DNA from: Candidatus Palauibacter sp.
Lineage (GTDB): Bacteria > Gemmatimonadota > Gemmatimonadetes > Palauibacterales > Palauibacteraceae
Length of the DNA: 64,000 nt
NCBI RefSeq assembly: GCF_965261555.1
Contig: NZ_OZ253465.1
Location: forward strand, 166,633 to 230,632
Reading direction: 5' to 3'
In this document: positions 3,149-25,476 of the stretch, piece after piece
Position numbering within the stretch: position 1 is the first letter of the stretch
Layout: each line of letters begins with the position of its first letter
Program-made: the position numbers and the translations under genes
The notes under the pieces: generated by a model
The model's input: only the letters and a program-made list of their open reading frames with translations
Databases searched by the model: none
What the model was told of the DNA's origin: nothing

Positions 3149-3151
3149 AAA

Positions 3152-6662: not shown

Positions 6663-6848
6663 GGCTTGAATATCGCGCACTCTCCTCGCACGGGCGAGCG
6701 AACGCCTCCCGCGGCCGCCATCCTCCATTATGAGGACGGCGATGTCCATGACGCGGTCTTGAGCAGATCCCCTTGCACACGGCCGGACGCTACCTTATTC
6801 CGCAGCCGGGCGCCGCTTCATTCCGCAGCGTGCGGCCCGCTACCGTGA

Positions 6849-9014
<2,166 letters not shown>

Positions 9015-9573: not shown

Positions 9574-9636
9574 GTACGGGAGTTGCGACTCCACTGTGTG
9601 CTTCTCCGTCCGAGCCCCGTCGCATCAGTTCAATCG

Positions 9637-10773
9637 TCAATCGGGATTCTCCCTGCGGAAGCTGAGCCTTGCGATCCGCCAAGGCGGGAAACGGGTGTCA
9701 GCGAGGAGGTACAGGTGCCGACCGCCACCCAGAACCCGGGAGTTCTCCGGCAACGGCACGTCCTCGTAGAGCTTGCGGCCGGTGTGCCGGTCGTAGATGT
9801 CGAGGGAGGAATGGTACGCCCCGAAAGGTCCACCGGACTTCGGGTAACCGAAACTGCCGTGCACAACGACGAGGCGGGAACCCACTACGGCGAGGTGCGA
9901 GATCGTGGTGCGCCCCCCAAGCAGGTCCGACACCTGCGTGGCGAACCCAGCTGGCGAGAAGGCGCCCGACTCGAATACGGGAACCAGTTCGAACGCCGCG
10001 GGGGGAACACCGATCTCTCCGATCGAGTCACCTGCCGTGTTCAGAATCGCCACCGGATAGCGCAGCGAAAACGCCATATAGATGGAATCGCCCGCCAAAT
10101 CGAACGAGAGGCGCGCGATCGAATTCCAATAGGGTCTCTCCGCCGGAAGGAACGGCCACATGAATGAACTCCACGTCAGTTCATCCTCTGCGAGGCGATG
10201 CAGCATTAGGGGGCGACGATAGAAGCGTGATCGTGGATCGTCCCCTCCCGATTCGCTGGCAAGCCTCATCTCGAGCAGAAGATCGTCGTCCAAGGTCTTG
10301 ACCCGTGAGGGAACTCCGGGTAGCCGCTTCGTAGTATCCGGCCGCAGGTCTCCGGTAAGCCACGTCAATCGAGCCTGGCGACCATCAACTACGGCTACTC
10401 GTCCGGACGCGGTCTCCGCCAGACCATCGATGCTCTGGAACTCGAACGGGCCCGCTCCAAATCGTCCGAAGGCCGCCTCGAGCCGCCCTTGGGCGTCGTA
10501 GCTCCGGACGCGGGGGAGCTGTCCGTCGCTCAGGAGGAAGCCACCTTCCGCACGTTCCTGAAAGATACCGGGCACGGCGATCGAATCCCGCGCACTCTCC
10601 TCGAGCGCGACAACCGTGGTATCGAACACACTGTCAAGCGCGACTCCGACCGCTGGCTGTGCGGGATCCGGCACCGCGTCGCATGCCGCGATTACCGAAA
10701 CCGTCACTATTACCGCATGGCGGGACAACCACACCCGCTGGCGGAGAGCAGTCAACAGCCTATTGAATGACAA
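9637..10773 (-). CDS. 6-bladed beta-propeller-type lipoprotein (propA)
   Basis: ORF 9637..10773 with a TTG start. Lipobox-like VSVIAAC. Blade-type motif FGRFGAGPFEFQSIDGL and repeated hydrophobic-strand/D-x-G patterns. Paralogous to 12778.., 17232.. and the C-terminal half of 20734... Start uncertain. It overlaps the P2 stop by 14 nt. Confidence 0.75.
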   Translation of the reverse strand: MSFNRLLTALRQRVWLSRHAVIVTVSVIAACDAVPDPAQPAVGVALDSVFDTTVVALEESARDSIAVPGIFQERAEGGFLLSDGQLPRVRSYDAQGRLEAAFGRFGAGPFEFQSIDGLAETASGRVAVVDGRQARLTWLTGDLRPDTTKRLPGVPSRVKTLDDDLLLEMRLASESGGDDPRSRFYRRPLMLHRLAEDELTWSSFMWPFLPAERPYWNSIARLSFDLAGDSIYMAFSLRYPVAILNTAGDSIGEIGVPPAAFELVPVFESGAFSPAGFATQVSDLLGGRTTISHLAVVGSRLVVVHGSFGYPKSGGPFGAYHSSLDIYDRHTGRKLYEDVPLPENSRVLGGGRHLYLLADTRFPPWRIARLSFRRENPD

Positions 10774-11017: not shown

Positions 11018-11043
11018 GTTGTCCCTCCTTACAGATTCAGGAA

Positions 11044-11631
11044 TCAGCTGCGGATGAGGCTGGTGGCGAGAGTCCCGCGCAAAGCACCAACCTGCGCCTC
11101 GAAGCTCCAGCTACAATCCGAGGCGGCGGTTCTGGAATCGGCCATCAGTACGACTCCAGTGTGATCAACGAGAAGCTTCGTGTTCGGGAGAAGCGGGCCG
11201 AATGCGGTGTCCATGTCTTGCCTCGACGCTGCAATGAACGTCGTGCCGCGCAACGCCCGGCGCGCATCCTGAGGCACCTCGTCGCCACCAAACACCACGA
11301 CGTGACGCTTCAACGACGTATCGTCCCCAAGGGCATTCCACACGGCGACCCCGCCATCCAGGCAGGTTCGGCACCGGGCGAGGTCAACGATCCAGAGCAG
11401 GTGAGCATCCGTCGTATCCGACCTTGCGAGATCGAATGAGGACAGGAACACCGAAGTTCCGACCAGGCGATCCCGGACGCTCGACCGCTCGGCAAGGGGA
11501 CTCGTCACCTGCAGCGTCGCCGCAAGCTCGCGGTTCGACGAGGCCATGTTCCAAACCAGGATCGTGCCGCCAAGCACCAGCCCGAGCAGGGTCCAGTCCA
11601 GCACCGTCCTGGAGAATTTTCGTGCCGCCAT
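11044..11631 (-). CDS. Membrane-anchored thioredoxin-fold (TlpA/redoxin-like) protein with CxxC
   Basis: C-terminal 195 aa of ORF 11044..12579, from ATG 11631. N-terminal TM segment (TVLDWTLLGLVLGGTILVW). LLWIVDLARCRTCLDGGVAVWNAL resembles the beta1-CxxC-alpha1 of redoxins, and later PNTKLLVDHTGVVL resembles the cis-Pro/beta strand region. The fold assignment is motif-level only. Confidence 0.55.
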   Translation of the reverse strand: MAARKFSRTVLDWTLLGLVLGGTILVWNMASSNRELAATLQVTSPLAERSSVRDRLVGTSVFLSSFDLARSDTTDAHLLWIVDLARCRTCLDGGVAVWNALGDDTSLKRHVVVFGGDEVPQDARRALRGTTFIAASRQDMDTAFGPLLPNTKLLVDHTGVVLMADSRTAASDCSWSFEAQVGALRGTLATSLIRS

Positions 11632-11711
11632 GAGCGTCACTCGGCTACGATGAAAACCGGGTTTCTCGCGAACGATAAACTGGCTTCCCCGGGTGGCCGC
11701 AACCAGCAAGG

Positions 11712-12785
11712 AAACAGTATCAATTTGGCTCAAACCGTTTACTCTTGATCCAGAGTGGATACTCCGTCCGATCCGGCCGGGAGAATGGGGCGGACGTGTT
11801 CCGCGGTGAACGCCGCGAACAGCCGCTCCGGGGCCATCCGCTCCAGCTCGCGCGGCGTGCAGCCCGGCCATGTCTTTGTTCTTCGGGCCATGGTGGTCCG
11901 TCCAAGCCCCGTGCGGCGCTCCACGCGTTTCCAGATCAGGCCCGACCGGCGAAGCTCGTACACCCTGAGCACCGAGAGACCGCCGATGAACGCCTTCAGG
12001 GTCGTCGCCCCGTTCGTGCGAGCCCCGAACTGCCGGAACAGCGTGACGCGCGCGTACCCCACGGCTTCGGCCAGTTCCTGCGCGCTGCGGAACGGCCGGT
12101 CGGCGGCATGCCGCGCGGCAAGAACCAGAGCCTTCCCGAGGGCGGGAGGCAGTGAGGAGCGCTCGAGCGTGTCGGCCAGACTCCACAGGCCCCACGTCGC
12201 TCGCACGGCATCGAGGCGAGGTCGCAGATGTGTCCGCAGTTCGGCATACCAGACCAGCGACGCCGCACGCACGCGAAGCAATCGCCTGGCCAACTCGGGA
12301 TCGGGACCTGTCACCAGAACGACCGGCACCCACGGCCGCTCCCGCTCGAGCCTGACCAGGACGTCGACCTGATCGGGCCGAACCCGGCCACCACAAGCGA
12401 CGACCACCGCCTCGATCTGCTGGTCGAAGCTGGCGAACGCTCCGGTCGCGTCCGCCACGCGGGCATCCGGGCCCGCGGCTCCGCATACCTCCTGGGCTGT
12501 CTGAAGCGTGTCCGCGACCACAAGGATCATGGCGGCCTCCTGCATAGGGAACGCGGCTGTCCTCGCGCCTTCGATGCATCTCCGGCGCCTACATCTCCAT
12601 ATGCCGGGAGAGGGCGAACCGTTACGTGAGCCCGTCGACCCGCTCGCGCACCATCGTCGGAGTTCGTGTCGTTCTCTGTTCGTAACAGGCTGCATGACAA
12701 TGGCTTATGAACTTCTATGTCCGACGCGAAGAAGAAAAAGAGCTGTGGTGGTCGTTACCGGTGCACCGCTGGATCGATCACGCGC
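11712..12785. repeat. Copy 1 of a ~1.07-kb dispersed duplication (R gene + 27 nt 3' + ~255 nt 5' region)
   Basis: Collinear with 23491..24566. The sequence is identical just 3' of the stop (AAACAGTATCAATTTGGCTCAAACCGTTTA). The coding part is near-identical, the 5' region is patchily conserved, and similarity stops after the box at 12743-12778. Confidence 0.85.
11739..12530 (-). CDS. Transcription regulator R1: degenerate receiver-like N-domain + AraC-like double HTH
   Basis: Internal ATG 12530 of ORF 11739..12695, preceded by AGGAGG. 263 aa starting MILVVADTLQTAQEV.... The usual phospho-acceptor Asp position reads AVVVACGG. The C-terminus ELAEAVGYARVTLFRQFG...WKRVERRTGLGRTTMARRTKTWPGCTPRELER has the spacing of an AraC-type HTH pair. 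About 87% identical to R2. Confidence 0.7.
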   Translation of the reverse strand: MILVVADTLQTAQEVCGAAGPDARVADATGAFASFDQQIEAVVVACGGRVRPDQVDVLVRLERERPWVPVVLVTGPDPELARRLLRVRAASLVWYAELRTHLRPRLDAVRATWGLWSLADTLERSSLPPALGKALVLAARHAADRPFRSAQELAEAVGYARVTLFRQFGARTNGATTLKAFIGGLSVLRVYELRRSGLIWKRVERRTGLGRTTMARRTKTWPGCTPRELERMAPERLFAAFTAEHVRPILPAGSDGVSTLDQE

Positions 12786-14049
12786 AGCTCGCCAGGAGCT
12801 CTACATCACTCGTTAGGGCGTTCGTGCGCGACTTCATCGCCATGGGGACAAGCCGTGTGGCGATGATCCGGCGCGGGACCTCAGAGTCCTTCGATGTCGA
12901 GGGCGACGATGGAGGATTCGTCGAGGCTGCCGTGTGGAGGGCCCAGACCCTGCGCCCTCTCGCCTCCAGCAACCGTTGATCCTCCGGAAGGCGGATCGAG
13001 CCGAGGAATCGCCCGGACGATAGGAACACGTCGTGCATGGCTCCCGGGGCTCCATGTGGGCCGGCTGCTCCGGGGGGGGCGGGGCGGTCCCGCTGCACCC
13101 AGATCCGTCCGTCCACATCGACGACGATGCGGGAGATGACGGCCGGTAGCGGGGGCTCGCCGGCTTCGGCCAGGGCTTCGCCGAGGGTGCTCCGCCACGC
13201 GTCGGGCAGCTCCTCATCCAGCTCCTCCCCGCGCTCGGCAGGCGAGAGCGGGAGCGGTTCCCCCGGATGACAGAACCGCACGAGGCTCGTGCCGTCCCGG
13301 TCGAAGACCTCCAGTTCGTAACGCCCGTCCGGGTCGGAGACGACCCGGGTCTCCGCACCGACACCGAGCAGCGATCGCGGCCAGGCGGCGAGTGCCACGC
13401 CCGAGGGCACCCTCACGCGGGATCGTGCCACGGTGTCATGCGCGGCCGCGTCGGGAGACCAGCGCACGAAGGACCGCTCCTCCCAGCCATCCTCCACCGG
13501 CCCGGGGGATTCGATCCACACGCTCTGGTCCGGCTGGAGGGAGAGGAACCCGACCTCGCCGGACATGACCGCCGGCATGAGCAACGCCGGATCGACCGCC
13601 GTCACGCTGCTCGAACGCGACGCCAGGTCGAGTGAAGTCAGCCGATTCGTGCCGAGGTCCAGGACGAGGAGGGTGTTGGCATCGACCCAGGTCACCGCTG
13701 CCGGGGCCTGGACCTCGCCCGGGCCTTGGCCCCGTGTCATGACCGGCCCCAGCCACTCTCCATCGGGGTCGACCACGACGACTTCGGCGAGGCCCCAGTC
13801 CGCGATGGCCACCGATCCGTCGGGGCCTACGGCGACGTCAGCCGGAAAGATCAGTTCCTCCGTTTCCTCGGAGCCTCCGGCACGCCACACCTCACGCCAG
13901 GAAAGCTCGGCGGGCCAGGTCCCGACGCCCGTGTTCGTCACGGTCCGACCGTCGGGGTCCACGACTTCACACGCGGGGGATCCCGGCCGGCCGCAACCGG
14001 CGACCGTGGCGGCAAGGAGTGAGGTCAGTGCCCGGGATCCGAGAGTCAT
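12778..14049 (-). CDS. 6-bladed beta-propeller-type lipoprotein (propC), with a probable frameshift near the 3' end
   Basis: ORF 12778..14169 with internal ATG 14049. MTLGSRALTSLLAATVAGCG contains the lipobox VAGC. Blade motif TRGQGPGEVQAP. After ...RRVWALHT the annotated frame gives an unrelated Ser/Pro-rich tail. An alternative frame gives GSLDESSIVALDIEGL* (stop at 12881), which matches paralog C-termini. Confidence 0.7.
   Translation of the reverse strand: MTLGSRALTSLLAATVAGCGRPGSPACEVVDPDGRTVTNTGVGTWPAELSWREVWRAGGSEETEELIFPADVAVGPDGSVAIADWGLAEVVVVDPDGEWLGPVMTRGQGPGEVQAPAAVTWVDANTLLVLDLGTNRLTSLDLASRSSSVTAVDPALLMPAVMSGEVGFLSLQPDQSVWIESPGPVEDGWEERSFVRWSPDAAAHDTVARSRVRVPSGVALAAWPRSLLGVGAETRVVSDPDGRYELEVFDRDGTSLVRFCHPGEPLPLSPAERGEELDEELPDAWRSTLGEALAEAGEPPLPAVISRIVVDVDGRIWVQRDRPAPPGAAGPHGAPGAMHDVFLSSGRFLGSIRLPEDQRLLEARGRRVWALHTAASTNPPSSPSTSKDSEVPRRIIATRLVPMAMKSRTNALTSDVELLASCA
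12817..12841 (+). pseudogene. Relic of a katG 3' end (25 nt, 24/25 identical to katG 8945-8969)
   Basis: GGCGTTCGTGCGCGACTTCaTCGCC versus katG GGCGTTCGTGCGCGACTTCgTCGCC. It translates AFVRDFIA versus AFVRDFVA. Like the real katG end, it lies convergent to a propeller 3' end. Confidence 0.45.
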
Positions 14050-14081
14050 GTACTGACGCCTACCCCGCGATGGGCTCTCCG

Positions 14082-14195
14082 TCAATCGGGATTCGACTCC
14101 AGGAAGCTGGGCCTTGCGATCCGCAAGGGCGGAAAACGGCGGTCCTGGAGAACGTAGAGATACCGCCAATACGGCCTCTCCATGGGAACGAACGG
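14082..14195 (-). pseudogene. Relic: last ~35 codons of a propA-type propeller paralog
   Basis: Hand translation gives (M)ERPYWRYLYVLQDRRFPPLRIARPSFLESNPD*, compared with the propA end GGGRHLYLLADTRFPPWRIARLSFRRENPD*. The nucleotide block ~14082-14140 parallels 9637-9700. Confidence 0.5.
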
Positions 14196-14210
14196 GTAGG
14201 TGTGTAACGT

Positions 14211-14816: not shown

Positions 14817-14827
14817 GGAGATGAGAG

Positions 14828-17011
14828 GTGTTTTCTGACAAGACGGGAGAGCATCCGGACGATCAGGCTCTAAACCGTTTCGCTGACGGCGAATTGAAAG
14901 GACGTGCCGCCCGCCGTGTCCGCTCACACCTTCAATCGTGCGCGGCGTGTCGCGAAGAAGTCCAGTTCATTCGTGACCTGGGGCACGCAATCCGGACGAT
15001 CCCCTCGCCGAGGCCACCGGAAGCTCTGTTCGACGAGATCTTCCGGAAGGAGCCGAAGAGTGCCACGGTTGGCCCCGCGACCGTACCGCAGCCGAGGCTC
15101 ATCGCGTTCTCGCGAAGTCTGCTTCTTGCGGCGGGGATCTGTCTGTTGGTGCTCATCGCGGCAATCGCCGCGTTGACCCTTGGGTCCGACCGGGCCATGG
15201 CCGGCTCGAGCAGATTGAGCTTCGAAGGGGAAGCGCCGGACGCGCTCACACTCCGTTACGAGACGGTCTCACCCTTCGCAGAGGAACGTGCTCTCCGGGC
15301 GCGGTTGCGCTACTGGGTTCCCGATTCGCTCCGCTTCGCGCAGACCGACCCGGGGTACCGCACAGCAGAAATCTCCCGCGAAGGATCCAACGTTTTCGCC
15401 GGCACCGTGGCCCTGCCGTCCGGTACCGTCTACGCCGTCGCCACCGTTGAAGACCTGGACGGAAATTACATCGACAGCAACTTCGGTCGGCTCTGGGAAT
15501 ACGTCGAAGCGGATCCCGGGGGCCGACCGACGTTGCAGGCGCGACGCTACCAACTGCTGGCGACCTCTGCGTTCAGCGTCTCCCGGGCCGCCGCAGTCGC
15601 GGAGGAAGCCGCCTTGCAGTTCCCCGGGCAGCCCGAGTTCCGGGTCCGGCAGTTGTTGTTCGCGCAGAGCGCAATTCCAGCCGCGTCACGCACCGCACTC
15701 CTCCGCCAGCACGCGCTTCGTCTGACGGAACTGGATGGCGCCGCCCGGGAAGGAAATCCGGGCCCCGTGGAACTCGACGCCCTCCAACGCTACGCAGCGC
15801 TCCTCGACCGGCCCGACCTGGCGAGCTACTGGTCGGACCAGCTGGTGCGTCGGTACCCGCAACACGGAGCGGCGGCCATGGCGCACCTGCAGTCGATTGT
15901 CCGTTCTCCCATGACGGCTCCGAGGAAGTTGGAGGATCTTGAGGAGAGCTGGGCGAGGACGGGGGCGCCGGCGACCGCCCAGGTCGGCTTCCGACTCTCG
16001 CTCCAGCTCGCAGATCCCGTCCTGACCAGGAGCTGGTTGGACCGCCACTCCCGGACCTCCGTGTTCCGCGACCTTAGCTACGACACTGAAATAGCCGCGG
16101 ACATGATGGGGGTGCCTGTCCTGTGGCCGATCGCCGAAGCGTGGATCCTCGATCGTCTTGACGACAGCCGCGATGAGATGGGGCCCGAGCGGCCGCTCGA
16201 TCAGTCACGTCGGAACTTCCGGGCCGAAGTGAGCCGGCACCGTGCGCGACTCAACCTCTACCTCGCCCGTCTCCGCCTCGCCCGCGGGCAGTTGGCGGAC
16301 GCGGTGGCGGCAGCAGAGCGGTCGGTCGGGGAGACGTGGAGTCCCCACATCTTTCAGGAAGCCGCCGAGATCCTCCGCGCCGCCGGGTCGGATCTCCGCG
16401 CCGGCGAGTTGCTGGCACTTTCCCGCGTGGATCCGGTGGCCCCCCTGAACTCCCGTCCGGTCTCCGACGGATCGCCGGCCCTCCCCGAGCCTTCGGAGGA
16501 GCAACTCGCGGCGGCTCGGACGACCATGTACGACCGCGTCACGGCCGCACTGCTCGAAGAGTACGTCGACCTCGAAGCACGCGTGCGATCGGCAACCGGC
16601 GAAGAGACGACGCTCCGCGAGGTGGTTGGCGACAGCCTCTTCCTGGTGGTCCAAGCCTATCGGCCAGACTTCGTGCCGGATGACGCATTGGCCCTTCTCG
16701 ACGTGAACTCCAACGAGTTACGCGCAGCCGGCGTGGGGACCCTCCTGATTGCTCAGAGGCCGGCTCCCGCTGAACCGGAACAGCCCGACTCCAGCCTGTC
16801 CAGCCCGAGGTTCCATCACGACGTGGGATACGAGGCGTGGGACAGTCTGCGCGCGTGGCGCCAGGTGCAGTACTTCGTCCTGGATCCGAGTGGCAGGCTC
16901 CGCCACCGCGGGGAGGATCTGGAGACGACTCTCCGCATTCTATTCGTGCTCTCGACGCGAACGGTCGCGTCTTCCGATGTCGCACCAGACCGAAAGGAAA
17001 CGGACACATGA
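14828..17011 (+). CDS. Anti-sigma factor (zf-HC2 N-domain, one TM segment, ~600-aa extracytoplasmic domain)
   Basis: ORF 14828..17011 with GTG start 8 nt after AAGGAG. HLQSCAACREEV is the H-x3-C-x2-C anti-sigma motif. TM segment LLLAAGICLLVLIAAIAAL. The last ~130 aa (TTLREVVGDSLFLVVQAYRPDFVPDDALALL...QYFVLDPSGRLRHRGEDLETTL) resemble a Cys-less redoxin fold, which is a weak call. Confidence 0.75.
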   Translation: MFSDKTGEHPDDQALNRFADGELKGRAARRVRSHLQSCAACREEVQFIRDLGHAIRTIPSPRPPEALFDEIFRKEPKSATVGPATVPQPRLIAFSRSLLLAAGICLLVLIAAIAALTLGSDRAMAGSSRLSFEGEAPDALTLRYETVSPFAEERALRARLRYWVPDSLRFAQTDPGYRTAEISREGSNVFAGTVALPSGTVYAVATVEDLDGNYIDSNFGRLWEYVEADPGGRPTLQARRYQLLATSAFSVSRAAAVAEEAALQFPGQPEFRVRQLLFAQSAIPAASRTALLRQHALRLTELDGAAREGNPGPVELDALQRYAALLDRPDLASYWSDQLVRRYPQHGAAAMAHLQSIVRSPMTAPRKLEDLEESWARTGAPATAQVGFRLSLQLADPVLTRSWLDRHSRTSVFRDLSYDTEIAADMMGVPVLWPIAEAWILDRLDDSRDEMGPERPLDQSRRNFRAEVSRHRARLNLYLARLRLARGQLADAVAAAERSVGETWSPHIFQEAAEILRAAGSDLRAGELLALSRVDPVAPLNSRPVSDGSPALPEPSEEQLAAARTTMYDRVTAALLEEYVDLEARVRSATGEETTLREVVGDSLFLVVQAYRPDFVPDDALALLDVNSNELRAAGVGTLLIAQRPAPAEPEQPDSSLSSPRFHHDVGYEAWDSLRAWRQVQYFVLDPSGRLRHRGEDLETTLRILFVLSTRTVASSDVAPDRKETDT

Positions 17012-17223
17012 CTCGAAAGCGCCTCCTGGCAGCCGCCGTGATCGGACTCACTGCCGCGATCATCCCCGTTACGACCGGGGCCAACGCAAGTCTCGGCGTT
17101 GAATTGTCGACGGCCGCATGCGCGGAAGGGGGTTGTGGAAGGTTGTCGCTGGCCGACTGCTTCTGTCCCGACATGCAATTCCCGAACCTCATGCCGCGGT
17201 GCGATGAGCCTCTCGCGGACTGA
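17008..17223 (+). CDS. Cys-rich secreted mini-protein P3 (71 aa, 5 Cys)
   Basis: Internal ATG of ORF 16837..17223, overlapping the anti-sigma stop (ATGA). Sequence: MTRKRLLAAAVIGLTAAIIPVTTGANA|SLGVELSTAACAEGGCGRLSLADCFCPDMQFPNLMPRCDEPLAD. It has a typical n-h-c signal with an AxA site. The propeller gene starts 8 nt after its stop. Confidence 0.55.
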   Translation: MTRKRLLAAAVIGLTAAIIPVTTGANASLGVELSTAACAEGGCGRLSLADCFCPDMQFPNLMPRCDEPLAD

Positions 17224-17231
17224 GCACCGGA

Positions 17232-18287
17232 TTGCGTAGGTGGACCGTCGGGGCCGTGGCCGGGGTGACGATCTGCGCACTTGCGTTGCTCGGCGGACGT
17301 GGTGGCGAGCCTCGCGCGGCCCCGGCCCCGGCAACCCTCGTTCCTGATGCGGTGTACTCGGACGATTCCCTGGGCTGGATCATAGATCTGGCACTGGCAG
17401 GTGACCGTCTCGTCGGAATCGACGCGCTGCTCGATCCAAGCGTGCACGTGTTCCACCCTCAAAGCGTGGAGCGTCTGGGATCCTACGGAAAACGTGGGGA
17501 CGGGCCGGGGGAGTTCAAGGACCCGGAGCAGATCGTGCCCGCGCCCGACTCGCCGGACGCGGTGTGGATCCTGGACGGCGTCCACCAACGCCTGACGTGG
17601 CTGTCCGTGAGCGAGATTGAAGCGGGATCCGTCGTCGCACCGGAGACGTTCCGCATGGACGGACCGAACGCCGGGTCACTGGTACGCGCCCCAAACGGCC
17701 AGTGGTTCGCGGGTGGCTGGATCACGGGGGGGCGGGTAGCTCGGTACCGGGCGGATCGGAGCTACGATCGCACGATTCTTGGTTTTCCCTCGGGGGTCGA
17801 AGCGCCGGGCATGACGCTCCTGCAGGCGTACGAAAGCCGAGTCGTCGCAAACCCTGCCGGACACCTCCTGGCGGCGGGGACGCTTCTTGGGGGTCTGCTC
17901 GACATCATCGACTACGATGGCACTCTGATCGCTCATGCCGCCGTGTCCGGCGCCTTTCAGCCGGTGTGGCGGCAAGGCCGGTCACGGGGTGGGAGGGCCG
18001 TTATGTCCCTCGGACCGGAGGCGCGCTACGGATTCACGGATCTGGTGGGTACGGAGCGCTACGTTTACGGCCTCTTCTCCGGGCGGAGCGTGGATGGGCC
18101 CGGCACTCCGTGGGCCACGACGCACGTGCAGGTCTACACATGGGATGGCAACTACGTGAAGACGCTGCACCTGGACCGAGCCGCGGAGGCCATCACCGTG
18201 GATGCCTCCGACACGTGGCTGTACGCCACGGGCCCCGACCCCACGCCGTGGGTCGGACGCTTCTTGTTGCAGGGCCACCTGAGATGA
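17232..18287 (+). CDS. 6-bladed beta-propeller-type secreted protein (propD)
   Basis: ORF 17232..18287 with a TTG start. Signal-like VGAVAGVTICALALLGG. Blade motif GKRGDGPGEFKDPEQI. Repeated D-x-x-G-x-hydrophobic strands. Start uncertain. Confidence 0.75.
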   Translation: MRRWTVGAVAGVTICALALLGGRGGEPRAAPAPATLVPDAVYSDDSLGWIIDLALAGDRLVGIDALLDPSVHVFHPQSVERLGSYGKRGDGPGEFKDPEQIVPAPDSPDAVWILDGVHQRLTWLSVSEIEAGSVVAPETFRMDGPNAGSLVRAPNGQWFAGGWITGGRVARYRADRSYDRTILGFPSGVEAPGMTLLQAYESRVVANPAGHLLAAGTLLGGLLDIIDYDGTLIAHAAVSGAFQPVWRQGRSRGGRAVMSLGPEARYGFTDLVGTERYVYGLFSGRSVDGPGTPWATTHVQVYTWDGNYVKTLHLDRAAEAITVDASDTWLYATGPDPTPWVGRFLLQGHLR

Positions 18288-18719: not shown

Positions 18720-19784
18720 CTACTTCGTCCAGACCACGACCACGCCGCACTGTCCTGTCGGGCCCCCGAATTCCGCGGGTAGCGAGGCGGCGCCCTTGTA
18801 CACTTCGATCCCTGCGACCTCGTGCGGTTTCACCCAGCCAAGGAACCTCTCAACACGCACTCCGTCGAGGTAGTTTGTCATGGGGCAGGAGGATCTTCGG
18901 TTGATCATGCGCCCGTTGCGGTCCACCGAAATGCCCGGGGCCAGCATGCTGACCAGGTGGGCGACTTCCCTCGGACGCCAGAGTTCGATGTAGTCCTCCG
19001 TGATGTACGTTCCGAGTCCGAGAAGCTCACCCCATCGTTTTCGCTCGTAGAACCCCTTGATCTCGAGGCGGCGCGACCGGACCACCGTGGTCACCAGGGG
19101 CTCCATCTCCAGCGGCGCCGGGACAAGGGCGATGCCGACTTCCGTCGTACGACCCTCCTCTACCGAGACCACGTGCCGGAGCGGCGCGTAGCCGATCCGC
19201 CGGGTCTCCAGCACATGCGTGCCGGCGGGCACGCCGCTCATCACGAACCGGCCCTGACGGCCCGTGTCGACCGACCTGGGCTGGCCGGCCAGTGAAACGA
19301 TCACCACATGGACGGGATCATCCGTCAGGGCGTCGCGCACCGAGCCGATGAGGCGCCCCGGCCGGCCCGGGGTACTCGGAGCCGTGGTCGCAACATCGAG
19401 CGGGATGCGGAGGACGACCTCGCGCGCCACCCCCGGCTCGAACAGGACGGACGCTTCGCCGCTCGAATGGTCGCCCAGCTCCGCCCGCACGGCGGCGCGC
19501 TCGGCAGCACGCGGCACGCAAAGGAGGAGCGAGCCATCGGCCCGCGTGGACGCCCGAACGGGCGGCGCGGCCGCGTCACCCCACTCGATGATCACCGTGG
19601 CCCCTGGCAGAGGGATGCTGCCGGACTGGTCCGAGACGGTTACGGCCAGTTCGACTCCGTCCCCGCAGTCGCCCGCCTCCTGTCCCCATGCGCCGCCGCC
19701 CCCGAACGCCAGGCACACCGGGACGAAGATCGCCGCCGTCAGGGAGCGGGGAGTCCGGGCCGTGAACATCGTTCCGCGAACCAT
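18720..19784 (-). CDS. Carboxypeptidase-regulatory-like domain + TonB-dependent-receptor plug-like domain protein (no barrel)
   Basis: ORF 18720..19871. Signal LTAAIFVPVCLAFGGGGAWGQ. GRLIGSVRDALTDDPVHVVIVSLAG...TGRQGRFVMSGVPAGTHVLETRRIGY resembles a CarboxypepD_reg fold. The C-terminus HLVSMLAPGISV...YLDGVRV...EVAGIEVYKGAASLPAEFGG...GVVVVWTK resembles a plug, and the protein ends there. Start at M30 (19784) or M35. Confidence 0.6.
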   Translation of the reverse strand: MVRGTMFTARTPRSLTAAIFVPVCLAFGGGGAWGQEAGDCGDGVELAVTVSDQSGSIPLPGATVIIEWGDAAAPPVRASTRADGSLLLCVPRAAERAAVRAELGDHSSGEASVLFEPGVAREVVLRIPLDVATTAPSTPGRPGRLIGSVRDALTDDPVHVVIVSLAGQPRSVDTGRQGRFVMSGVPAGTHVLETRRIGYAPLRHVVSVEEGRTTEVGIALVPAPLEMEPLVTTVVRSRRLEIKGFYERKRWGELLGLGTYITEDYIELWRPREVAHLVSMLAPGISVDRNGRMINRRSSCPMTNYLDGVRVERFLGWVKPHEVAGIEVYKGAASLPAEFGGPTGQCGVVVVWTK

Positions 19785-20424
19785 CAGTCTCTCCGATCTC
19801 GCCCGGCCGGCCACGCAGGACGCCAGCCCGTAATCGCAGGAAGGTCGAGCTCGTCGCGGCTCACCGTCCATAGCATACCTCCGGTTGCGGTCAGCAGAGC
19901 GTGAGCGGGGGGCAGATCCACGGACCCGATGAACCCATCGTCAAATCGATATGCGGCCCACCGCTCGGCATCGCGCGGCGCACGCGCACTTGCGCGAAAC
20001 CAGACCGTCCCGGCCTCGCTCGCGGTCATTGCATCTACCGCCGTCTCGGCGGGGCGAGGGATCTGCTGCAGGAAAGCTCGCGCCAAAGTCCCTGACGATA
20101 CGCGGGAACGGAACGAATCCGGCATCCCGCCGTGAAGTCCTTGGGCGAACGATCGAACCTCTTCCCGATGTAGCGGGCGCCGCCCCGTGAGAAAACCCGT
20201 ACTGTAGCGTCCTCCGGCAGCAGCACGAACACGCGCTCGGCATCGGCGAGCACCCCGCCGACCCTTGTCAGTCCGTAAACCGGATCGTCGACGCTTCCGA
20301 TCATGACGCCATGCTTGAGCGTCCGCTCCGGGACCTGGCCCGCGACCGGACCGGATACCGGAGCGGCACCGAGCGCCAGCGCGTATCCCAGAAGAATGCT
20401 CCTCATAATGGGCTTCCCGCTCAT
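19784..20424 (-). pseudogene. Degraded propeller paralog (two overlapping ORFs in different frames, internal blades missing)
   Basis: ORF 20035..20490 has a signal (MRSILLGYALALGAAPVSG), a first blade and a decayed GPGEF site (GKRFDRSPKDF). ORF 19784..20125 has the last blades (...YRFDDGFIGSVDLPPAHALLTATGGMLWTVSRDELDLPAITGW...). Together they give ~210 aa, compared with ~350 aa in intact paralogs. Confidence 0.45.
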
Positions 20425-20439
20425 TCGCTGGCCTGTCTT

Positions 20440-20725
20440 TCTTCTACAATCGCAGTTGTGCCGTGGCGCTTCGAATCGCGCTCGTCTCACTCTGCCGGTA
20501 CGCCACCCTCTGCGACGCCAGCCGTGATCTCCACGGAGACCTGCATCGATAACAACGCCAGCGTGTCGCGGATCGTGCCCGCCGTGTCCAACACGACGAG
20601 GGGGCGACCTCGGGTCTCGAGGGTCGGGCCGGGTATCGCCGTGTAGACGCCTCGTGGAGCATGTGGCTCAGTTCGACCGCCGCTTCGGGCACGATCATGC
20701 GTAGTTCGCGGTCGTATATCGCCGC
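20440..20725 (-). pseudogene. Relic of a purine nucleoside phosphorylase 3' part (frameshifted)
   Basis: 20600-20722 aligns by eye at roughly 80% with 24880-24990 of the intact PNP gene (…GTAGACGCCT.CGTGGAGC.TGTGG.CCAGTTCG.CCGC…GCACGATC.TGCG.AGTTCGCGGTCGTA). Translations YDRELRMIVPEAAVELSHMLHE / GVYTAIPGP.LET / VSVEITAGVAEGGV parallel PNP YDRELRTIVRETAAELGHTLHE / GVYAAMHGPAFET / ISCLTNYAAGVLDEPL. They are split over ORFs 20444..20698 and 20487..20744. Confidence 0.55.
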
Positions 20726-20733
20726 AACTTAAG

Positions 20734-22593
20734 CTAACGGTCATAGCGGATCACCGATGGAACGCCAAAGGCGTTTTCTTCGACGGCGATGAAGAAGCTG
20801 CGCGTCGCAGCCGCGACTCGTTGCCGACGTGGAAGCGCCACGACGTCTTGAACCTCGCCAGACGGGGACAGGACAGTCCACACTACGTTCTCCTCGCCAC
20901 GGTCCTCGCGCCTTAGCCAGACCGAACCGTCGCGGCCGACTGCCAGAGCCGTGATCGGAGGGAGCGTCGCCGGAATCAGCCCTCCCTCTCGCAAGGCTTG
21001 TTCAAACTCCGGCCCTTCGGGTGCTTCCTGCTCCCCGGTGGGGAATACGCTCAACTCTTGTAGCGTTCGCTCGATCGCGCGCCTGGTCAGCGGAACCGGC
21101 TCGTAGCCGTAGGCGCGGTGGAACACCGTGTCTCCCTTCATGTCCCTCCGTGTTATTGTAACCAGCCCCTCGGCGGGATCTGTCCAGCGAGCGATGATCG
21201 CGCCTTGGCCGTTCGGCATGACCGCCGTCTTCGAGAAACCTTCGTATGGTGCCTGTACCTGAAACAGCCGGTTCCCCCGCACTATCCCAACGATAGCTCC
21301 GGAGACTTCCCTCCACGCCACGGTATCAATGACCATGCCGAGCGAATCGATTCTCAACAGAGGGATGCGAGAATGCTCCTGCTGGACACCCGCTTCTGGC
21401 AATGCTGGCGCGCCCAAGAGGTGCGGTTCAGCTATGGCGTGTCCACCCTCGAGAAGGACCACGGGCCAACCGCCAGTGATGAATAGTCCATCGCGAACGG
21501 ATTGCATTTCCAGCTTCGCCGCCAAGCGTCGTGTAGCCAGAAAGTGTCCGTCCGTCGAGAACAGGCTCACCCGTCCCTGGTCGGAGTCACTGACGAAGAC
21601 CGTATCATCCAAAACTCCGACCGCCGAGATTGCCGAAAATTCGCCGGGCCCCTCGCCTCGACCCCCGGCCTGCCACAGCACTTCGCCACTGGAATCGAGG
21701 CGCATTATGCGGAGATCCCACGGTTGCGCCACATAGACTTCACCAGCCTCGCCGATGGCCACGTCGTCCAAGCGCCAGGGAAGCAACCCCGCTTGGCCGA
21801 CACCATCAATCGTCCATACCGGTTTCACCTCAGCGGAGATCGCCTTGCTCGCCAACATCGGCAGGGCTCGAGTCCATCGGTCCGCCACCATCTCTGCAAT
21901 CGTGGTTCTTAGCTGGCTCTCAGAGGGGGGCGTCCCGTATCGCCAGCCATTGACCAATACGGTCGGGGTGCCTTCCACGCCAAGCTGCTGACCGAGTTTG
22001 AGTGTCGTCGCGATGCGCTCATCTCGCGTAGTTCCTTCCTCTCGCGCACAGTGCGAGATCCGAGCCGTGTCGCGAATCCCCGCCTCAATGGCCAACGTGC
22101 CCCATCCCATCAAGCCAAGAGACTGCTGATTCCGGTATACCGAGTCGATCCACTCCCGAAAGAACCCCAGTTCGTGCGCGCAGTCCGCAGCGCGCGCCCC
22201 GGGCGTGGAGTGCTCATGATAATCGAGCGGGTGGTTCACATAGAAGACGCGAACCGGCAGCGTATCGGTCGCGATCTTCTGCACGGTCTCGTGAAATAGT
22301 GCGCAGAACGGACACTCCGAATCCATGAACACGACGACATCGACCGGCGGCCGGCCTCCCCCGCTAACGTCGCGAGTCTCGAAGAGGAGGAAACCTTCAT
22401 CGCGCGCGCTCTCCCATCCAGTTTCGAAAACCATCGAAGGATTGTCGGGCTGATGGCTTGGGCCACGAGCTGGGGCGAACACGAGACGGTATCCGACGAT
22501 GACAACCGTCGCCAAGGCGCAAATCGCGAGCAGGATGGTCAAGAGCTGGTCACGTCTCGCGGATCGGCAACTATGCGACATGGCAATCCCCAT
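20734..22593 (-). CDS. Fusion protein: N-terminal TM anchor + DsbA-like thioredoxin domain (CPFC) + 6-bladed beta-propeller
   Basis: ORF 20734..22674, with the start probably at ATG 22593 or 22581. TM segment LLTILLAICALATVVIVGY. VDVVVFMDSECPFCALFHETV...ADCAHELGFFREW...LGVEGTPTVLVNGWRYG is a classical DsbA/BdbD-type pattern. The C-terminal ~350 aa carry GGRGEGPGEFSAISAV and blade repeats and end ...AFGVPSVIRYDR. Confidence 0.75.
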   Translation of the reverse strand: MGIAMSHSCRSARRDQLLTILLAICALATVVIVGYRLVFAPARGPSHQPDNPSMVFETGWESARDEGFLLFETRDVSGGGRPPVDVVVFMDSECPFCALFHETVQKIATDTLPVRVFYVNHPLDYHEHSTPGARAADCAHELGFFREWIDSVYRNQQSLGLMGWGTLAIEAGIRDTARISHCAREEGTTRDERIATTLKLGQQLGVEGTPTVLVNGWRYGTPPSESQLRTTIAEMVADRWTRALPMLASKAISAEVKPVWTIDGVGQAGLLPWRLDDVAIGEAGEVYVAQPWDLRIMRLDSSGEVLWQAGGRGEGPGEFSAISAVGVLDDTVFVSDSDQGRVSLFSTDGHFLATRRLAAKLEMQSVRDGLFITGGWPVVLLEGGHAIAEPHLLGAPALPEAGVQQEHSRIPLLRIDSLGMVIDTVAWREVSGAIVGIVRGNRLFQVQAPYEGFSKTAVMPNGQGAIIARWTDPAEGLVTITRRDMKGDTVFHRAYGYEPVPLTRRAIERTLQELSVFPTGEQEAPEGPEFEQALREGGLIPATLPPITALAVGRDGSVWLRREDRGEENVVWTVLSPSGEVQDVVALPRRQRVAAATRSFFIAVEENAFGVPSVIRYDR

Positions 22594-22697
22594 TTGGTTG
22601 CGGAAAGAAGCTCTTGCCCGGCGAACACAGTGGCGCTTCGGCTGCGCTGCGAGAAAGCAGCACAGCCGAAGCAAGGTGCGCGAATACGGCGGTCAGA

Positions 22698-23006
22698 TCA
22701 ATAAAGGTCGCCGCCACCACTTCCCCCGCCGCCCGGGGAGGCACATCGGATCGTCTTGGCGAGCTGATAGCCCGGCAGGACGCAGGCCCTGCTTTCGCAC
22801 GATCCGCTCTCGCCGCAGCCTACATTCTTGCAATACGTCTCCATGCTGTTGGGGCAGAAGGTCGCACAGATCCGCTGGCAACCGCCGGCGGTACTTGCAG
22901 ACGTCCGACTAGCCAGTACGGTTCCGCCCAGAATCACGAGCAGACAAACGACCTGGATGATGCGACGCGCAGCGGGAGACGACGGAAGCTTCGTTCCTAC
23001 GGACAT
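22698..23006 (-). CDS. Cys-rich secreted mini-protein P4 (102 aa, 8 Cys after the signal, Gly-rich tail)
   Basis: ORF 22698..23006 with ATG preceded by AGGAGGAAAAA. Sequence: MSVGTKLPSSPAARRIIQVVCLLVILGGTVLASRTSASTAGGCQRICATFCPNSMETYCKNVGCGESGSCESRACVLPGYQLAKTIRCASPGGGGSGGGDLY. Confidence 0.6.
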   Translation of the reverse strand: MSVGTKLPSSPAARRIIQVVCLLVILGGTVLASRTSASTAGGCQRICATFCPNSMETYCKNVGCGESGSCESRACVLPGYQLAKTIRCASPGGGGSGGGDLY

Positions 23007-23490
23007 TTTTTCCTCCTAGGTTGGGAACGATAAGCCCCGAAACAATTCCGGGACGCGGTGGTGACGGCTGCGAGGAATAACTTCGCATGCACTCACGGGC
23101 AGCAATCTGAGTTCCCCTGCGGGCTGACGAACACGATCCGCAGCCATCAGCGATCGCAGCAAAAGCCCGCGGCCATGGGGACGATGCCGAAGGGCGAAAG
23201 GCCCTGACGAGACAACGCGCCTTCCGCCCGAGAATCGGGCTGACACACACCCGACCGCGTGAACCAACCAGCTTGAAGACGCCGTAGCGGTGGATCACAG
23301 GCCGGAACTCTGGGCATCTACCTACAGCCAACAGATGCTCGATTGTAGCGTCCGCGGAGCGTCGCATCGGAGGCCACGCCCTTCCTGACCTTGAGCTCCG
23401 GCATGCGTTCGTCCTCCTATCTGGAGATTCGACTCGACGACGACTCTGGCATGGGAAACTGGCGGTTCCCGGGACCTGCATCTAGAACAC

Positions 23491-24566
23491 AAACAGTATC
23501 AATTTGGCTCAAACCGTTTACTCTTGATCCAGAGTGGACACTCCGTCCGATCCGGCCGGGAGAACGGGCCGAACGTGTTCCGCGGTGAACGCGGCGAACA
23601 GCCGGTCCGGGGCCATCCGCTCCAGCTCGCGCGGCGTGCAGCCCGGCCATGTCTTTGTTCTTCGGACCATGGTGCGCCGTCCAAGTCCCGTGCGGCGCTC
23701 CACGCGTTTCCAGATCAGGCCCAACCGGCGAAGCTCGTACACCCTGAGCACCGAGAGACCGCCGATGAACGCCTTCAGGGTCGTCGCGCCGTTCGCGCGA
23801 GCCCCGAACTGCCGGAACAGCGTGACGGGCGCGTACCCCACGGCTTCGGCCAGTTCCCGCGCGTTGCGGAATGGCCGGTCGGCGGCATGCCGCGCCGCAA
23901 GAACGAGCGCCTTCCCGAGGGCGGGAGACAGTGAGGAGCGCTCGAACGTGTCGGCCAGAGTCCACAGGCCCCACGTCGCTCGCACGGCATCGAGGCGAGA
24001 TCGCAGATGTGTCCGCAGTTCGGAATACCCGACCAGCGACGCCGCCCGCACGCGAAGCAATCGCTTGGCCAACTCGGGATCGGGATCCGTCACCAGAACG
24101 ACCGGCACCCACGGCCGCTCGCGCTCGAGCCTGGCCAATAGGTCGACTTGCTCGGGCCGAACGCGGCCGGGGCTCGCGACCACCACCGCATCGACCACCG
24201 CATCGAGGCGAGTGAGCGCTCCGTTCGCGACCGCCACGCGGGCATCCGGGCCCGCGGCTCGGCATACCTCTTGGGCTGTCTGAAGCGTGTCCGCGACCAC
24301 AAGGATCATCGCGACCTCTCTTGAACAGGAACGCGAGAGCGCCCGCGTCCTCGATGTATCTCCACCCTCTACTAGTTAATGGCCCGCTCAAGGGCGAAAC
24401 TTCGTTCGGGTCGAGCGGATCGGCTGGTGCGTGATCGTCGGATGTCACCTCGTAGCCGAATCGTAAGACTCTTTATGGCAATCGATCAGGAACCTCGATG
24501 TCCGAGGCCAGGAAGAAAAAATGGCTTTGGTGGTCGTTACCAATGCACCGTTGGATCGACTCCGCG
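23491..24566. repeat. Copy 2 of the ~1.07-kb dispersed duplication
   Basis: See copy 1 (11712..12785). Confidence 0.85.
23518..24309 (-). CDS. Transcription regulator R2 (paralog of R1)
   Basis: ORF 23518..24309, 263 aa. I count about 33 differences from R1 by hand alignment, clustered at residues 27-59. The HTH region is almost identical. Confidence 0.7.
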   Translation of the reverse strand: MILVVADTLQTAQEVCRAAGPDARVAVANGALTRLDAVVDAVVVASPGRVRPEQVDLLARLERERPWVPVVLVTDPDPELAKRLLRVRAASLVGYSELRTHLRSRLDAVRATWGLWTLADTFERSSLSPALGKALVLAARHAADRPFRNARELAEAVGYAPVTLFRQFGARANGATTLKAFIGGLSVLRVYELRRLGLIWKRVERRTGLGRRTMVRRTKTWPGCTPRELERMAPDRLFAAFTAEHVRPVLPAGSDGVSTLDQE

Positions 24567-24630: not shown

Positions 24631-25476
24631 TTACGGGAACCGGCGGATCGACTCGGCGACGAGGCGCTGGAATCCGGCTTGGGCGAGTTTTGTCGTCTCG
24701 AGGACTTCCTCGTGATTCAGCGGTTCGTCGAGGACTCCCGCGGCGTAGTTCGTGAGGCAGGAGATGGCGACGCAGCGCATGCCGAGGGCGCGGGCCGCGA
24801 TGACCTCCGGCACCGTGGACATACCGACGGCGTCGGCGCCCAGCATCCGGAGCATGCGGATCTCGGCGGGCGTCTCGAAGGCGGGGCCGTGCATCGCCGC
24901 GTAGACGCCTTCGTGGAGCGTGTGGCCCAGTTCGGCCGCGGTTTCGCGCACGATCGTGCGCAGTTCGCGGTCGTAGGCGAACGTCAGGTCGGGGAAGCGG
25001 CTCTCCGTCCCCACGACGGGGCCGATGAGCGGGCTCGTGCCGGTCAGGTTCAGGTGGTCCGAGATCAGCATCAGTTCGCCGGGGTGCCAGCCCTCCCGGA
25101 TCGCCCCGGCCGCGTTCGAGAGGAAGAGTACCGGGATCCCCAGCGCCGCCGCGACCCGCACGTAGAAGACGACGCGGTCCGGCGGGCCGCCCTCGTAGAG
25201 GTGGACGCGGCCGCTGAGGCCCAGCACGGGTCGGCCGCCGAGCGTCCCGATCAATGCGTGCCCGGCGTGCCCGATCACCGTGGGACGCGGCCAGCCGGGA
25301 AGATCCACGTACGGCACCCGCACCGGATCCTCGATCTCCTCGCCGAGGCCGCCGAGTCCGGAGCCCATCGTGATCACGACGTGCGGCATGGCACCGTCCA
25401 GCCGGTCCCCGATGCGGGCCCGCAGCGCCTCAGCCGCCGCTTCGACGCCGGCCCGGATGTCGGCGGCGCGGGTCAC
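24631..25476 (-). CDS. Purine nucleoside phosphorylase (trimeric PNP/PunA type)
   Basis: C-terminal 281 aa of the composite ORF 24631..27450: ...VVITMGSGLGGL...GHAGHALIGTLGGRPVLGLSGRVHLYEG...FLSNAAGAI...GPAFETPAEIRMLRMLGADAVGMSTVPEVIAARALGMRCVAISCLTNYAAG. GTG 25476 overlaps the nupC stop (GTGA). Confidence 0.85.
   Translation of the reverse strand: MTRAADIRAGVEAAAEALRARIGDRLDGAMPHVVITMGSGLGGLGEEIEDPVRVPYVDLPGWPRPTVIGHAGHALIGTLGGRPVLGLSGRVHLYEGGPPDRVVFYVRVAAALGIPVLFLSNAAGAIREGWHPGELMLISDHLNLTGTSPLIGPVVGTESRFPDLTFAYDRELRTIVRETAAELGHTLHEGVYAAMHGPAFETPAEIRMLRMLGADAVGMSTVPEVIAARALGMRCVAISCLTNYAAGVLDEPLNHEEVLETTKLAQAGFQRLVAESIRRFP

Follow-up and report, generated by a model that had tools for sequence, protein, structure and literature searches.

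In NHLRC2 and SOQ1 a thioredoxin-like domain lies N-terminal to a six-bladed NHL propeller, and in the structures of these proteins the redox motif faces the cup, or binding face, of the propeller (PMC6107167; 10.1101/2021.03.16.435614). SOQ1 is membrane-anchored with both domains on the non-cytoplasmic side (10.1101/2021.03.16.435614), and the bacterial homologues of NHLRC2 have no conserved neighbouring genes (PMC6107167). Disulfide machinery is also coupled to propellers, by fusion or in a dedicated operon, in DsbI, which joins a DsbB-like domain in the membrane to a beta-propeller in the periplasm (PMC5403849, PMC4460558), and, to judge from the reference list of PMC5403849, in the DsbL/DsbI-arylsulfate sulfotransferase system. 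Other systems encode a thioredoxin-fold or Dsb protein next to its client: MauD/MauE are encoded with the Cys-rich small subunit of methylamine dehydrogenase, MauA (10.64898/2026.03.05.709764), and the sublancin operon carries bdbA/bdbB, dedicated Dsb proteins beside a Cys-rich client (PMC4336743). Here we describe a gene on the reverse strand (20734..22593, -) of a 64,000-nucleotide stretch from Candidatus Palauibacter sp., phylum Gemmatimonadota (contig NZ_OZ253465.1, positions 166,633 to 230,632; the whole stretch is called the window). The gene encodes a membrane anchor, a DsbA-class thioredoxin domain and an NHL-type beta-propeller in one polypeptide, and lies directly downstream of P4, a gene for a secreted mini-protein with eight cysteines. 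The linkage of these three kinds of gene occurs in fused and in split form and is statistically strong, and both the architecture and its key residues are conserved. Thus the oxidoreductase, the propeller and the Cys-rich protein very probably work together.

The open reading frame (ORF) of the fusion is 619 amino acids (aa) long from the ATG at 22593; alignment with orthologues suggests a start at the equivalent of the ATG at 22581 ('MSHSC...'). At the N-terminus, positive charge is followed by 23 hydrophobic residues (residues 17-39; 22477..22545, -), with an AlphaFold2 helix at 10-38, and this transmembrane (TM) segment is kept in the homologues P0002 and L005 and in the standalone DsbAs P0123 and P0160 (P and L numbers being our handles for proteins and loci). 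It is predicted to be a type II signal anchor in the inner membrane that would leave the N-terminus in the cytoplasm and the remainder of the fusion (residues 40-619) in the periplasm. Residues 80-232 (21898..22356, -) match Pfam PF13462 Thioredoxin_4 at an E-value of 1.2e-16 (61.8 bits, the cut-off being 23.2, over positions 11-163 of the 165 in the model), PF01323 DSBA matches at 33.3 bits against a cut-off of 25.6, and solved DsbA/BdbD-type chains align to residues 81-234 in a phmmer search of the PDB. The active-site motif CPFC (residues 94-97; 22303..22314, -) stays a CxxC in every homologue, fused or split, where it reads CPFC, CPAC, CAFC, CPYC or CSYC. A cis-Pro loop, GTPT, lies at about residues 209-212, its four columns being invariant in homologues; a second Cys pair is conserved too, so that the invariant columns of the domain read C, P, C, C, C and G-T-P-T. 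An earlier note on this DNA, made from the sequence alone, had described a TM anchor, a DsbA/BdbD-like domain and a propeller in one protein downstream of P4, and had quoted the motifs FMDSECPFC and GTPTVLVNG. The ORF, the Pfam scores and the NHL matches bear this description out, the N-terminal domain scoring above the Pfam cut-off as a member of the DsbA family, and both motifs are present.

The remainder of the chain, residues ~255-619 (20737..21831, -), is an NHL-type propeller. NHL-repeat propellers, namely the Thin and TRIM NHL domains, match it at an E-value of 3e-17 (phmmer against the PDB), and a profile of 43 members of the propeller family reaches 5e-37. The AlphaFold2 model of this part is only moderately confident, with blocks at 60-86 on the predicted local distance difference test (pLDDT), and its top Foldseek matches are all six-bladed NHL domains. 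The invariant columns of the propeller family (G-x-G-P-G-E-F, D, R, W) are structural residues of the NHL repeat, and the chain ends at the last blade, no beta-stranded domain following at the C-terminus. The fused propeller contains no cysteine in the window, L001, L005 or L018, and the DsbA domain must therefore act in trans, on another protein.

In its order of domains the fusion resembles NHLRC2 and SOQ1: a thioredoxin-fold domain stands directly N-terminal to an NHL propeller, and the geometry of those proteins is the one that we propose for the fusion. It differs from them in its thioredoxin class, which is DipZ/TlpA with a CC(I/V)NC motif in NHLRC2/SOQ1 (PMC6107167) and DsbA, with a predicted helical insertion and CPFC, in the fusion. 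The C-terminal beta-stranded domain is theirs only and, compared with NHLRC2, a Cys-rich ORF is a recurrent neighbour on the side of the fusion only. Since thioredoxin class and motif differ, the C-terminal domain is missing and no NHLRC2 entry stands among the PDB matches listed, the fusion is not a member of the NHLRC2/SOQ1 group. With the membrane-associated thiol oxidases of DsbA/BdbD type it shares the Pfam models, the CPxC motif, the T-P cis-Pro loop and similarity to solved structures; unlike them it has a C-terminal propeller and a second Cys pair and belongs to a clade that tracks an 8-Cys ORF family. In DsbI it is the quinone-linked DsbB-type component that is fused, not a DsbA-type one, and the client in the DsbL/AssT system is the enzyme, whereas the propeller of the fusion has no cysteine. 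The DUF5128 (PF17170) and TolB_like (PF15869) families are six-bladed propellers of the same broad type and are likewise expanded to several loci per genome, but their descriptions include neither a DsbA fusion nor this gene linkage. The fusion itself scores only 15.2-16.2 bits against the DUF5128 cut-off of 22.9, and 35 of the 43 propeller relatives match that model at E-values up to 0.01 (best 5.8e-8).

P4 (22698..23006, -) encodes a 102-aa precursor with a hydrophobic N-terminus and a plausible signal-peptidase site. The mature part, taken to begin at about residue 39, holds eight cysteines, and the Gly-rich tail has DLY at its end. An AGGAGG Shine-Dalgarno sequence lies 6 nucleotides (nt) ahead of its ATG, and the fusion ORF begins 105 nt downstream, with no terminator-like site in the gap. 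The hydrophobic N-termini of P4 and the other small proteins look, from their AxA-type sites, like cleavable Sec signal peptides, not anchors. An orthologue of P4 in L001, 66-68 % identical with every Cys kept, sits between a homologous regulator and the fusion gene, as in the window. The mini-proteins are hypervariable outside their cysteines. Pfam and NCBIfam gave nothing for P4 or for P1, P2 and P3, the other small Cys-rich proteins of the window (a lone TIGR04117 match at an E-value of 0.076 is meaningless), and mature P4 had no significant match in the PDB. However, a profile of 15 independent 8-Cys ORFs that lie beside split DsbAs gives P4 19.1 bits, a score reached by none of 500 composition-preserving shuffles (mean -2.2, standard deviation 3.1, maximum 10.0). 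By this measure P4 belongs to the same 8-Cys family as the ORFs that adjoin split DsbAs. Another family of small secreted proteins with paired cysteines (CC...CC...CC, eight Cys in ~35 residues) occurs in genomes also used here (L035 13189-13368; L063 3604-3798, -; L011 16150-16371, -).

The fusion is rare: an exhaustive search of 1.84 billion representative proteins found about six fused clusters at 50 % identity, and a word-indexed search three only. Close full-length homologues are P0002 (78 %) and the L005 protein (64 %; P0003 is its truncated gene call), and together with P0080, P0200 and P0208 they back the architecture along its full length. The distant full-length fusions (P0080, P0200, P0190, P0208) are 26-33 % identical, depending on the alignment, and keep the CxxC and the cis-Pro loop. 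Because the gene recurs in independent assemblies (L001-L005, L017-L019), it is no assembly artefact. The exhaustive search, in which roughly 350 homologues have an E-value under 1e-30, also gave many propeller-only proteins of ~400 aa, as well as DsbA-only proteins (~220 aa, TM-anchored) that are 40-47 % identical. When GTDB genomes were scanned with the propeller motif as seed, 80 loci emerged, nearly all of them in Gemmatimonadota (Longimicrobiales, Gemmatimonadales and Palauibacter), the phylum to which its relatives also assign the window. The propeller family occupies several loci per genome, one genome holding 4 of the 80, and many of its members are lipoproteins.

Standalone DsbAs match a profile of the fused domain at E-values of 1e-34 to 1e-58, and in L038, L042, L048, L050, L055, L059 and L063 they lie directly beside propeller genes on the same strand. 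Split genes stand in a fusion-like order in L101, L038, L055, L059, L050, L048, L063 and L044. The two closest standalone DsbAs are those of L101 and L100. L101 contains, in this order, a helix-turn-helix (HTH) regulator, a 91-aa 8-Cys ORF, a TM-anchored DsbA that is 43 % identical to the fused domain, and a lipoprotein propeller; in its called coordinates the DsbA gene ends and the propeller gene starts at the same base. Gene by gene, this locus reads as the exact unfused counterpart of the P4-fusion arrangement in the window. L100 has a DsbA, a CarboxypepD_reg protein and a lipoprotein propeller. A Rosetta-stone relation thus holds in other genomes, where homologues of both fused domains are encoded by separate neighbouring genes. 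In a rough neighbour-joining tree of the DsbA domains, without support values, the fused domains form at least two clades, with split ones interleaved, which hints at more than one event of fusion or fission. Intermediate stages of decay are also seen. P0086 (551 aa) keeps the C-terminal half of the DsbA domain without the CxxC, P0004 (L006-L009) keeps only the last helix, TIAEMGAGRWT, and P0005 (L010) keeps nothing. The propellers of P0004 and P0005 are ~55-63 % identical to that of the window, closer than the distant fusions, and no Cys-rich ORF was found at their loci. Both the domain and the peptide ORF being missing there, DsbA domain and peptide gene disappear together.

The association with a Cys-rich ORF was assessed by a small-ORF screen in six frames (45-140 aa, a hydrophobic N-terminus and at least 4 Cys after it). 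Among distinct fused loci, an 8-Cys ORF stands directly upstream of the fusion in four of six (the window, L001, L018 and L019), a neighbourhood on whose absence elsewhere the earlier note would have given up its proposal. When the survey is centred on propeller genes, 15 of 154 have a Cys-rich ORF on their own strand no more than 900 nt upstream, against 0 of 154 on the opposite strand and 2 of 124 in zones shifted by 2.5 kb. What predicts the ORF is an oxidoreductase near the propeller ([[15,7],[8,139]], odds ratio 37, p 5.5e-11). With GTDB loci only, the ORF is present in 6 of 7 loci that have an oxidoreductase and in 5 of 68 that have none (p 1.5e-5). A survey centred on DsbAs used metagenome contigs, which are often short, and counted as close those DsbAs that score at least 145 bits on the fused-domain profile. 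Of the close DsbAs, 23 of 34 are preceded, at a distance of up to 900 nt, by a Cys-rich ORF with a signal peptide; the opposite strand has one in 1 of 34, and among distant DsbAs 2 of 29 are so preceded (p 5e-7). The 23 ORFs encode 6, 8, 10 or 13 Cys, and 15 of them are of the 8-Cys type. Downstream, where only close DsbA loci with enough sequence could be counted (n=20), 16 are followed by a propeller (9 loci) or by a CarboxypepD_reg protein (7 loci), the latter confirmed by Pfam, versus 1 of 20 distant loci; none of these 20 close DsbAs is fused. The proposal that oxidoreductase, propeller and Cys-rich protein are functionally linked is thereby strengthened, both by the split loci elsewhere and by the neighbourhood statistics. 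So is the choice of the P4-type small protein as the best candidate substrate, the Cys-rich ORF being the most constant neighbour of the DsbA clade.

The Rosetta-stone argument had originally been made within the window, by comparing the fusion locus (cassette 2) with a second set of genes, cassette 1. Its gene order was described correctly: a CxxC membrane protein (trx195; 11044..11631, -) is followed by P2 (10760..11017, -), an 85-aa secreted protein with six Cys, and by prop378 (9637..10773, -), a propeller lipoprotein with the lipobox VIAAC, recognised by the propeller profile and as an operon partner. At its 3' end P2 runs 14 nt into the propeller gene. The reading of trx195 as a free thioredoxin-fold protein is also supported, but not its likeness to DsbA. 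It has no Pfam, NCBIfam or PDB sequence match, and in a family of 63 homologues C87, C90 and C173 are invariant. The AlphaFold2 model (pLDDT 83.8) shows a long N-terminal helix followed by beta-alpha-beta-alpha-beta-alpha-beta-beta-alpha, and the top 50 Foldseek matches are ResA, TlpA, DsbE, StoA and peroxiredoxins. It has a membrane anchor and a CxxC at the N-terminus of a helix, and lacks the helical domain of DsbA. By its fold trx195 falls into the ResA/TlpA class of membrane-anchored reductases and isomerases, not with DsbA. Its similarity to the fused DsbA domain is not significant by BLASTP (E 0.48) or by profiles in both directions (E >0.05, Z=1). prop378 is a distant paralogue of the fused propeller, matching the fusion-clade profile at 2.4e-11 over blades 1-2 only, and P2 has no match to the P4 family profile, P2 and P4 being different peptide families. 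Cassette 1 is rejected as a split form of cassette 2: because trx195 is not homologous to the DsbA-class domain, the window holds no fused/split pair of the same genes, and the two cassettes are analogous modules. Nevertheless cassette 1 is independent evidence of such a link, here between another class of oxidoreductase, another family of Cys-rich proteins and a propeller. Its three-gene operon is conserved in four distinct genomes, the window included; in the other three, trx195 homologues (49-60 %) precede a 76-78-aa 6-Cys protein, in the position of P2 (L011, L013, L015), and then a propeller-sized gene of ~380 aa, which matches the propeller profile in two of the three (the L013 gene does not).

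The large subunit of methylamine dehydrogenase, MauB, is a seven-bladed propeller, and the small subunit MauA ends up bound to it. The mau trio of a thioredoxin-like protein, a Cys-rich small subunit and a propeller therefore mirrors both cassettes, and with the mau and sublancin systems the module shares a specialised thioredoxin-fold enzyme encoded in an operon with a small disulfide-rich secreted protein. It differs from them in having no MauG-like cofactor-maturation genes, ABC transporter or glycosyltransferase and in its NHL-type, probably six-bladed propeller, and no sequence relationship was found between the module proteins and the Mau or Sun proteins. A literature search found no paper describing a DsbA-propeller fusion or the gene module; searches on NVEALA, DUF5128 and BF3164 gave no match, and those on the phrase '6-bladed beta-propeller' gave unrelated ones. 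Dsb proteins dedicated to a Cys-rich client encoded beside them are known already, and so are fusions of a thioredoxin fold with NHL; what is new is the mostly Gemmatimonadota module together with its mini-protein families.

We think it reasonably probable that the module is dedicated to the mini-protein, with a DsbA-class domain that oxidises it tethered to a Cys-free propeller that binds it. The module, which recurs in Gemmatimonadota and of which the fusion is a rare form, comprises, in order, a dedicated regulator, a secreted mini-protein of eight (sometimes six or ten) Cys, a membrane DsbA, and a propeller lipoprotein and/or a CarboxypepD_reg protein. P4 would be exported by Sec, its four disulfides would be introduced by the DsbA domain, and the adjoining propeller, acting as a protein-binding platform, would then hold the mini-protein as scaffold, receptor or partner, so that folding and capture would take place on one polypeptide. 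The propeller would be tethered to the membrane either way, as a lipoprotein when separate and through the anchor of the DsbA when fused. Cassette 1 is a parallel module with another oxidoreductase class, made of the ResA/TlpA-like protein, the 6-Cys P2 and a propeller. We infer that P4 is the client, that the domain is an oxidase and that P4 is bound by the propeller, as we do any role of the complex.

Several observations weigh against this explanation. The AlphaFold2 model of the whole fusion, built on an alignment of 7 sequences, is poor (pLDDT 53.6 overall, below 50 across most of residues 31-253), so that its DsbA part is unusable and its propeller only indicative; the propeller-P4 contact is putative. 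Likewise the direction of the reaction, oxidase as opposed to isomerase or reductase, would follow from the family of the domain only. Two of the six fused loci, L005 and L017, have no Cys-rich ORF detected nearby, and only ~10 % of family propeller genes have one upstream, so the propeller is not generally in need of it. Many split loci have a CarboxypepD_reg protein, not a propeller, after the DsbA, and the CarboxypepD_reg protein downstream of the fusion (18720-19871) holds several cysteines and could be a client too. Finally, the small-ORF screen is rule-based and the loci are phylogenetically non-independent, so that the p-values given above overstate independence.

These points bear on what else the module could do. 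If the client were the CarboxypepD_reg outer-membrane (OM) protein, or envelope proteins generally, the mini-protein would be a co-regulated passenger or accessory factor. CarboxypepD_reg proteins do follow 7 of the 20 close DsbAs, the one in the window has several cysteines, and L005 and L017 retain the fusion without a peptide gene. We nevertheless regard this as unlikely, as the Cys-rich ORF is the most constant neighbour of the DsbA clade (23 of 34), beyond either downstream partner, it is lost together with the DsbA domain in P0004 and P0005, and a housekeeping DsbA would not be expected to track a single small-ORF family. The DsbA might also do no more than supply disulfides while the propeller, as an enzyme, cleaves or modifies the mini-protein, in a maturation resembling that of ribosomally synthesised and post-translationally modified peptides, with a secreted product such as a bacteriocin or signal. 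Two six-bladed enzymes that act on peptides, PAL and the streptogramin B lyase Vgb, are among the weaker sequence and fold matches; the hypervariability of the mini-proteins apart from their Cys and the separate regulator of each module would suit such a product, and a gene cluster for a peptide that includes Dsb genes has a precedent in the sublancin operon (PMC4336743). But the invariant columns of the propeller are structural NHL residues without a His/Tyr cluster resembling a metal site, no transporter, protease or immunity gene is consistent across the loci read, and 90 % of the propeller paralogues have no peptide gene, which makes maturation by the propeller improbable in our judgement.

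NHLRC2 and SOQ1 suggest a redox switch, in which the thioredoxin-fold domain would control a propeller-bound partner by disulfide exchange and the mini-protein would be a relay or sensor. Known membrane-anchored proteins of this kind have the same domain order and a redox motif at the domain interface (PMC6107167; 10.1101/2021.03.16.435614). However, the DsbA-class CPxC in place of the DipZ/TlpA-class CC(I/V)NC, the missing C-terminal beta-stranded domain and the lack of an NHLRC2 entry among the PDB matches listed all speak against it, and 8-10 Cys within 50-70 residues are more in keeping with a structural core of disulfides than with a relay; we consider a switch very unlikely. That neighbouring genes were fused by accident, with no functional meaning, is hardly credible. 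The rarity of the fusion (~6 clusters at 50 % identity in 1.84 billion proteins, 0 of 20 in the DsbA-centred sample) would agree with an accident, and a join such as that in L101, where the genes meet at one base, would be mutationally easy. Yet the adjacency is conserved across many lineages and in different gene orders, fused forms occupy at least two places of the rough DsbA tree, and even fusions of only 26-31 % identity still have the CxxC, the cis-Pro loop and the second Cys pair.

The finding defines a concrete and testable module of three or four parts in a phylum that has been little studied, and it clearly predicts P4 as the client of the DsbA. To the few thioredoxin-fold/NHL-propeller proteins known, NHLRC2 and SOQ1, it adds one of the DsbA class, and a bacterial system whose neighbouring gene points to a likely substrate could be of help in understanding this type of architecture. 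It also uncovers families of bacterial disulfide-rich mini-proteins outside the current Pfam and NCBIfam models. A broader possibility, which we hold only tentatively and find rather doubtful, is a multi-copy envelope system of the Gemmatimonadota, unrecognised so far, in which a hypervariable disulfide-knotted mini-protein of an 8-, 10- or 6-Cys family, with its own DsbA- or TlpA-class enzyme, would be captured by a cognate NHL propeller lipoprotein and/or a CarboxypepD_reg OM protein. If true, this would be a new ligand-receptor system, for signalling, uptake or antagonism, with the fusion as its most compact form.

Upstream of P4 lies a regulator with a C-terminal HTH (23518..24309, -) and a weak TetR_N match. 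It is 87 % identical to a paralogue at 11739-12695, beside cassette 1, and both are part of a ~1.1-kb duplication (11677-12784 and 23456-24566, 82-91 % DNA identity) that spans the regulator and its upstream region; the two cassettes share a recently duplicated regulator, and their structural genes are otherwise unrelated. The homologue in the equivalent position of L001 has a weak HTH_18 match, and similar regulators are present in L018, L105 and L101. Downstream of the fusion, the protein encoded at 18720..19871 (-) carries a CarboxypepD_reg domain (PF13620, E 1.1e-14) and a C-terminus that looks Plug-like by eye. Similar short proteins of ~180-400 aa follow the DsbA in L100 (981-1514), L108 (5550-6422; its CarboxypepD_reg match is weak and below cut-off) and L123 (1967-3181), and Pfam found no Plug or beta-barrel domain in these or in that of the window. 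Among longer relatives, the one in L137 has a Pfam Plug domain and that in L128 a weak OM-barrel match.

Fusion, P4 and regulator form a 4.26-kb cassette flanked by 65-nt direct repeats (88 %; 20652-20716 and 24911-24975). One copy is contained in an ORF whose translation resembles a purine-nucleoside phosphorylase; the second, a relic fragment, follows immediately 3' of the fusion. Similarly, the L005 fusion gene is flanked by repeats of 116-160 nt (3854-4010 and 6521-6670), copies of the 3' end of another gene, which by eye looks like a pyridoxal phosphate-dependent enzyme. The fusion cassette looks inserted or mobile, and the cassettes, being bracketed by duplicated host-gene fragments in two genomes, may be mobile. 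The G+C content of the window is ~68 %, and that of the peptide/propeller cassettes is 4-6 points lower (0.62-0.64 at 10001-12000, 14001-16000 and 20001-24000, versus 0.67-0.72 in the flanking housekeeping regions), which is consistent with accessory or recently acquired DNA.

A third module lies on the forward strand. An extracytoplasmic function (ECF) sigma factor (14211-14816, +) and an anti-sigma factor (14828-17011, +) precede P3 (17008..17223, +), a 71-aa secreted 5-Cys protein, and prop351 (17232..18287, +), a propeller of the TolB_like family (PF15869, E 4.7e-16, 59.4 bits against a cut-off of 29.2). The whole unit of ECF sigma, zf-HC2 anti-sigma (~725 aa), P3 and propeller (14211-18287) is conserved in L015 at 330-4352, which suggests sigma-controlled expression of at least one peptide-propeller pair. 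P1 (9229..9483, -), a paralogue of P2 at 52 % identity, lies downstream of prop378 and has no propeller gene after it; neither an oxidoreductase nor a propeller gene of its own stands before the convergent gene 6876-9014, which looks like a catalase-peroxidase.

The closest relative of the fused propeller in the window is prop463 (12778..14169, -), a propeller lipoprotein with the lipobox VAGC that matches the fusion-clade profile at 5.9e-20. At 19784-20490 (-) two overlapping ORFs in different frames, with a C-terminal part at 7.6e-9 to the same profile, look like a degenerate, internally deleted propeller gene; it was considered as an orthologue of the propeller downstream of the L001 fusion and rejected, there being no similarity between the two. 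An 86-nt direct repeat (77 %) joins 14080-14165 to 9635-9720, the latter matching the 3' end of the prop378 gene, and at 14080-14165, upstream of prop463, the repeat is what is left of the C-terminus of a propeller (FPPLRIARPSF...).

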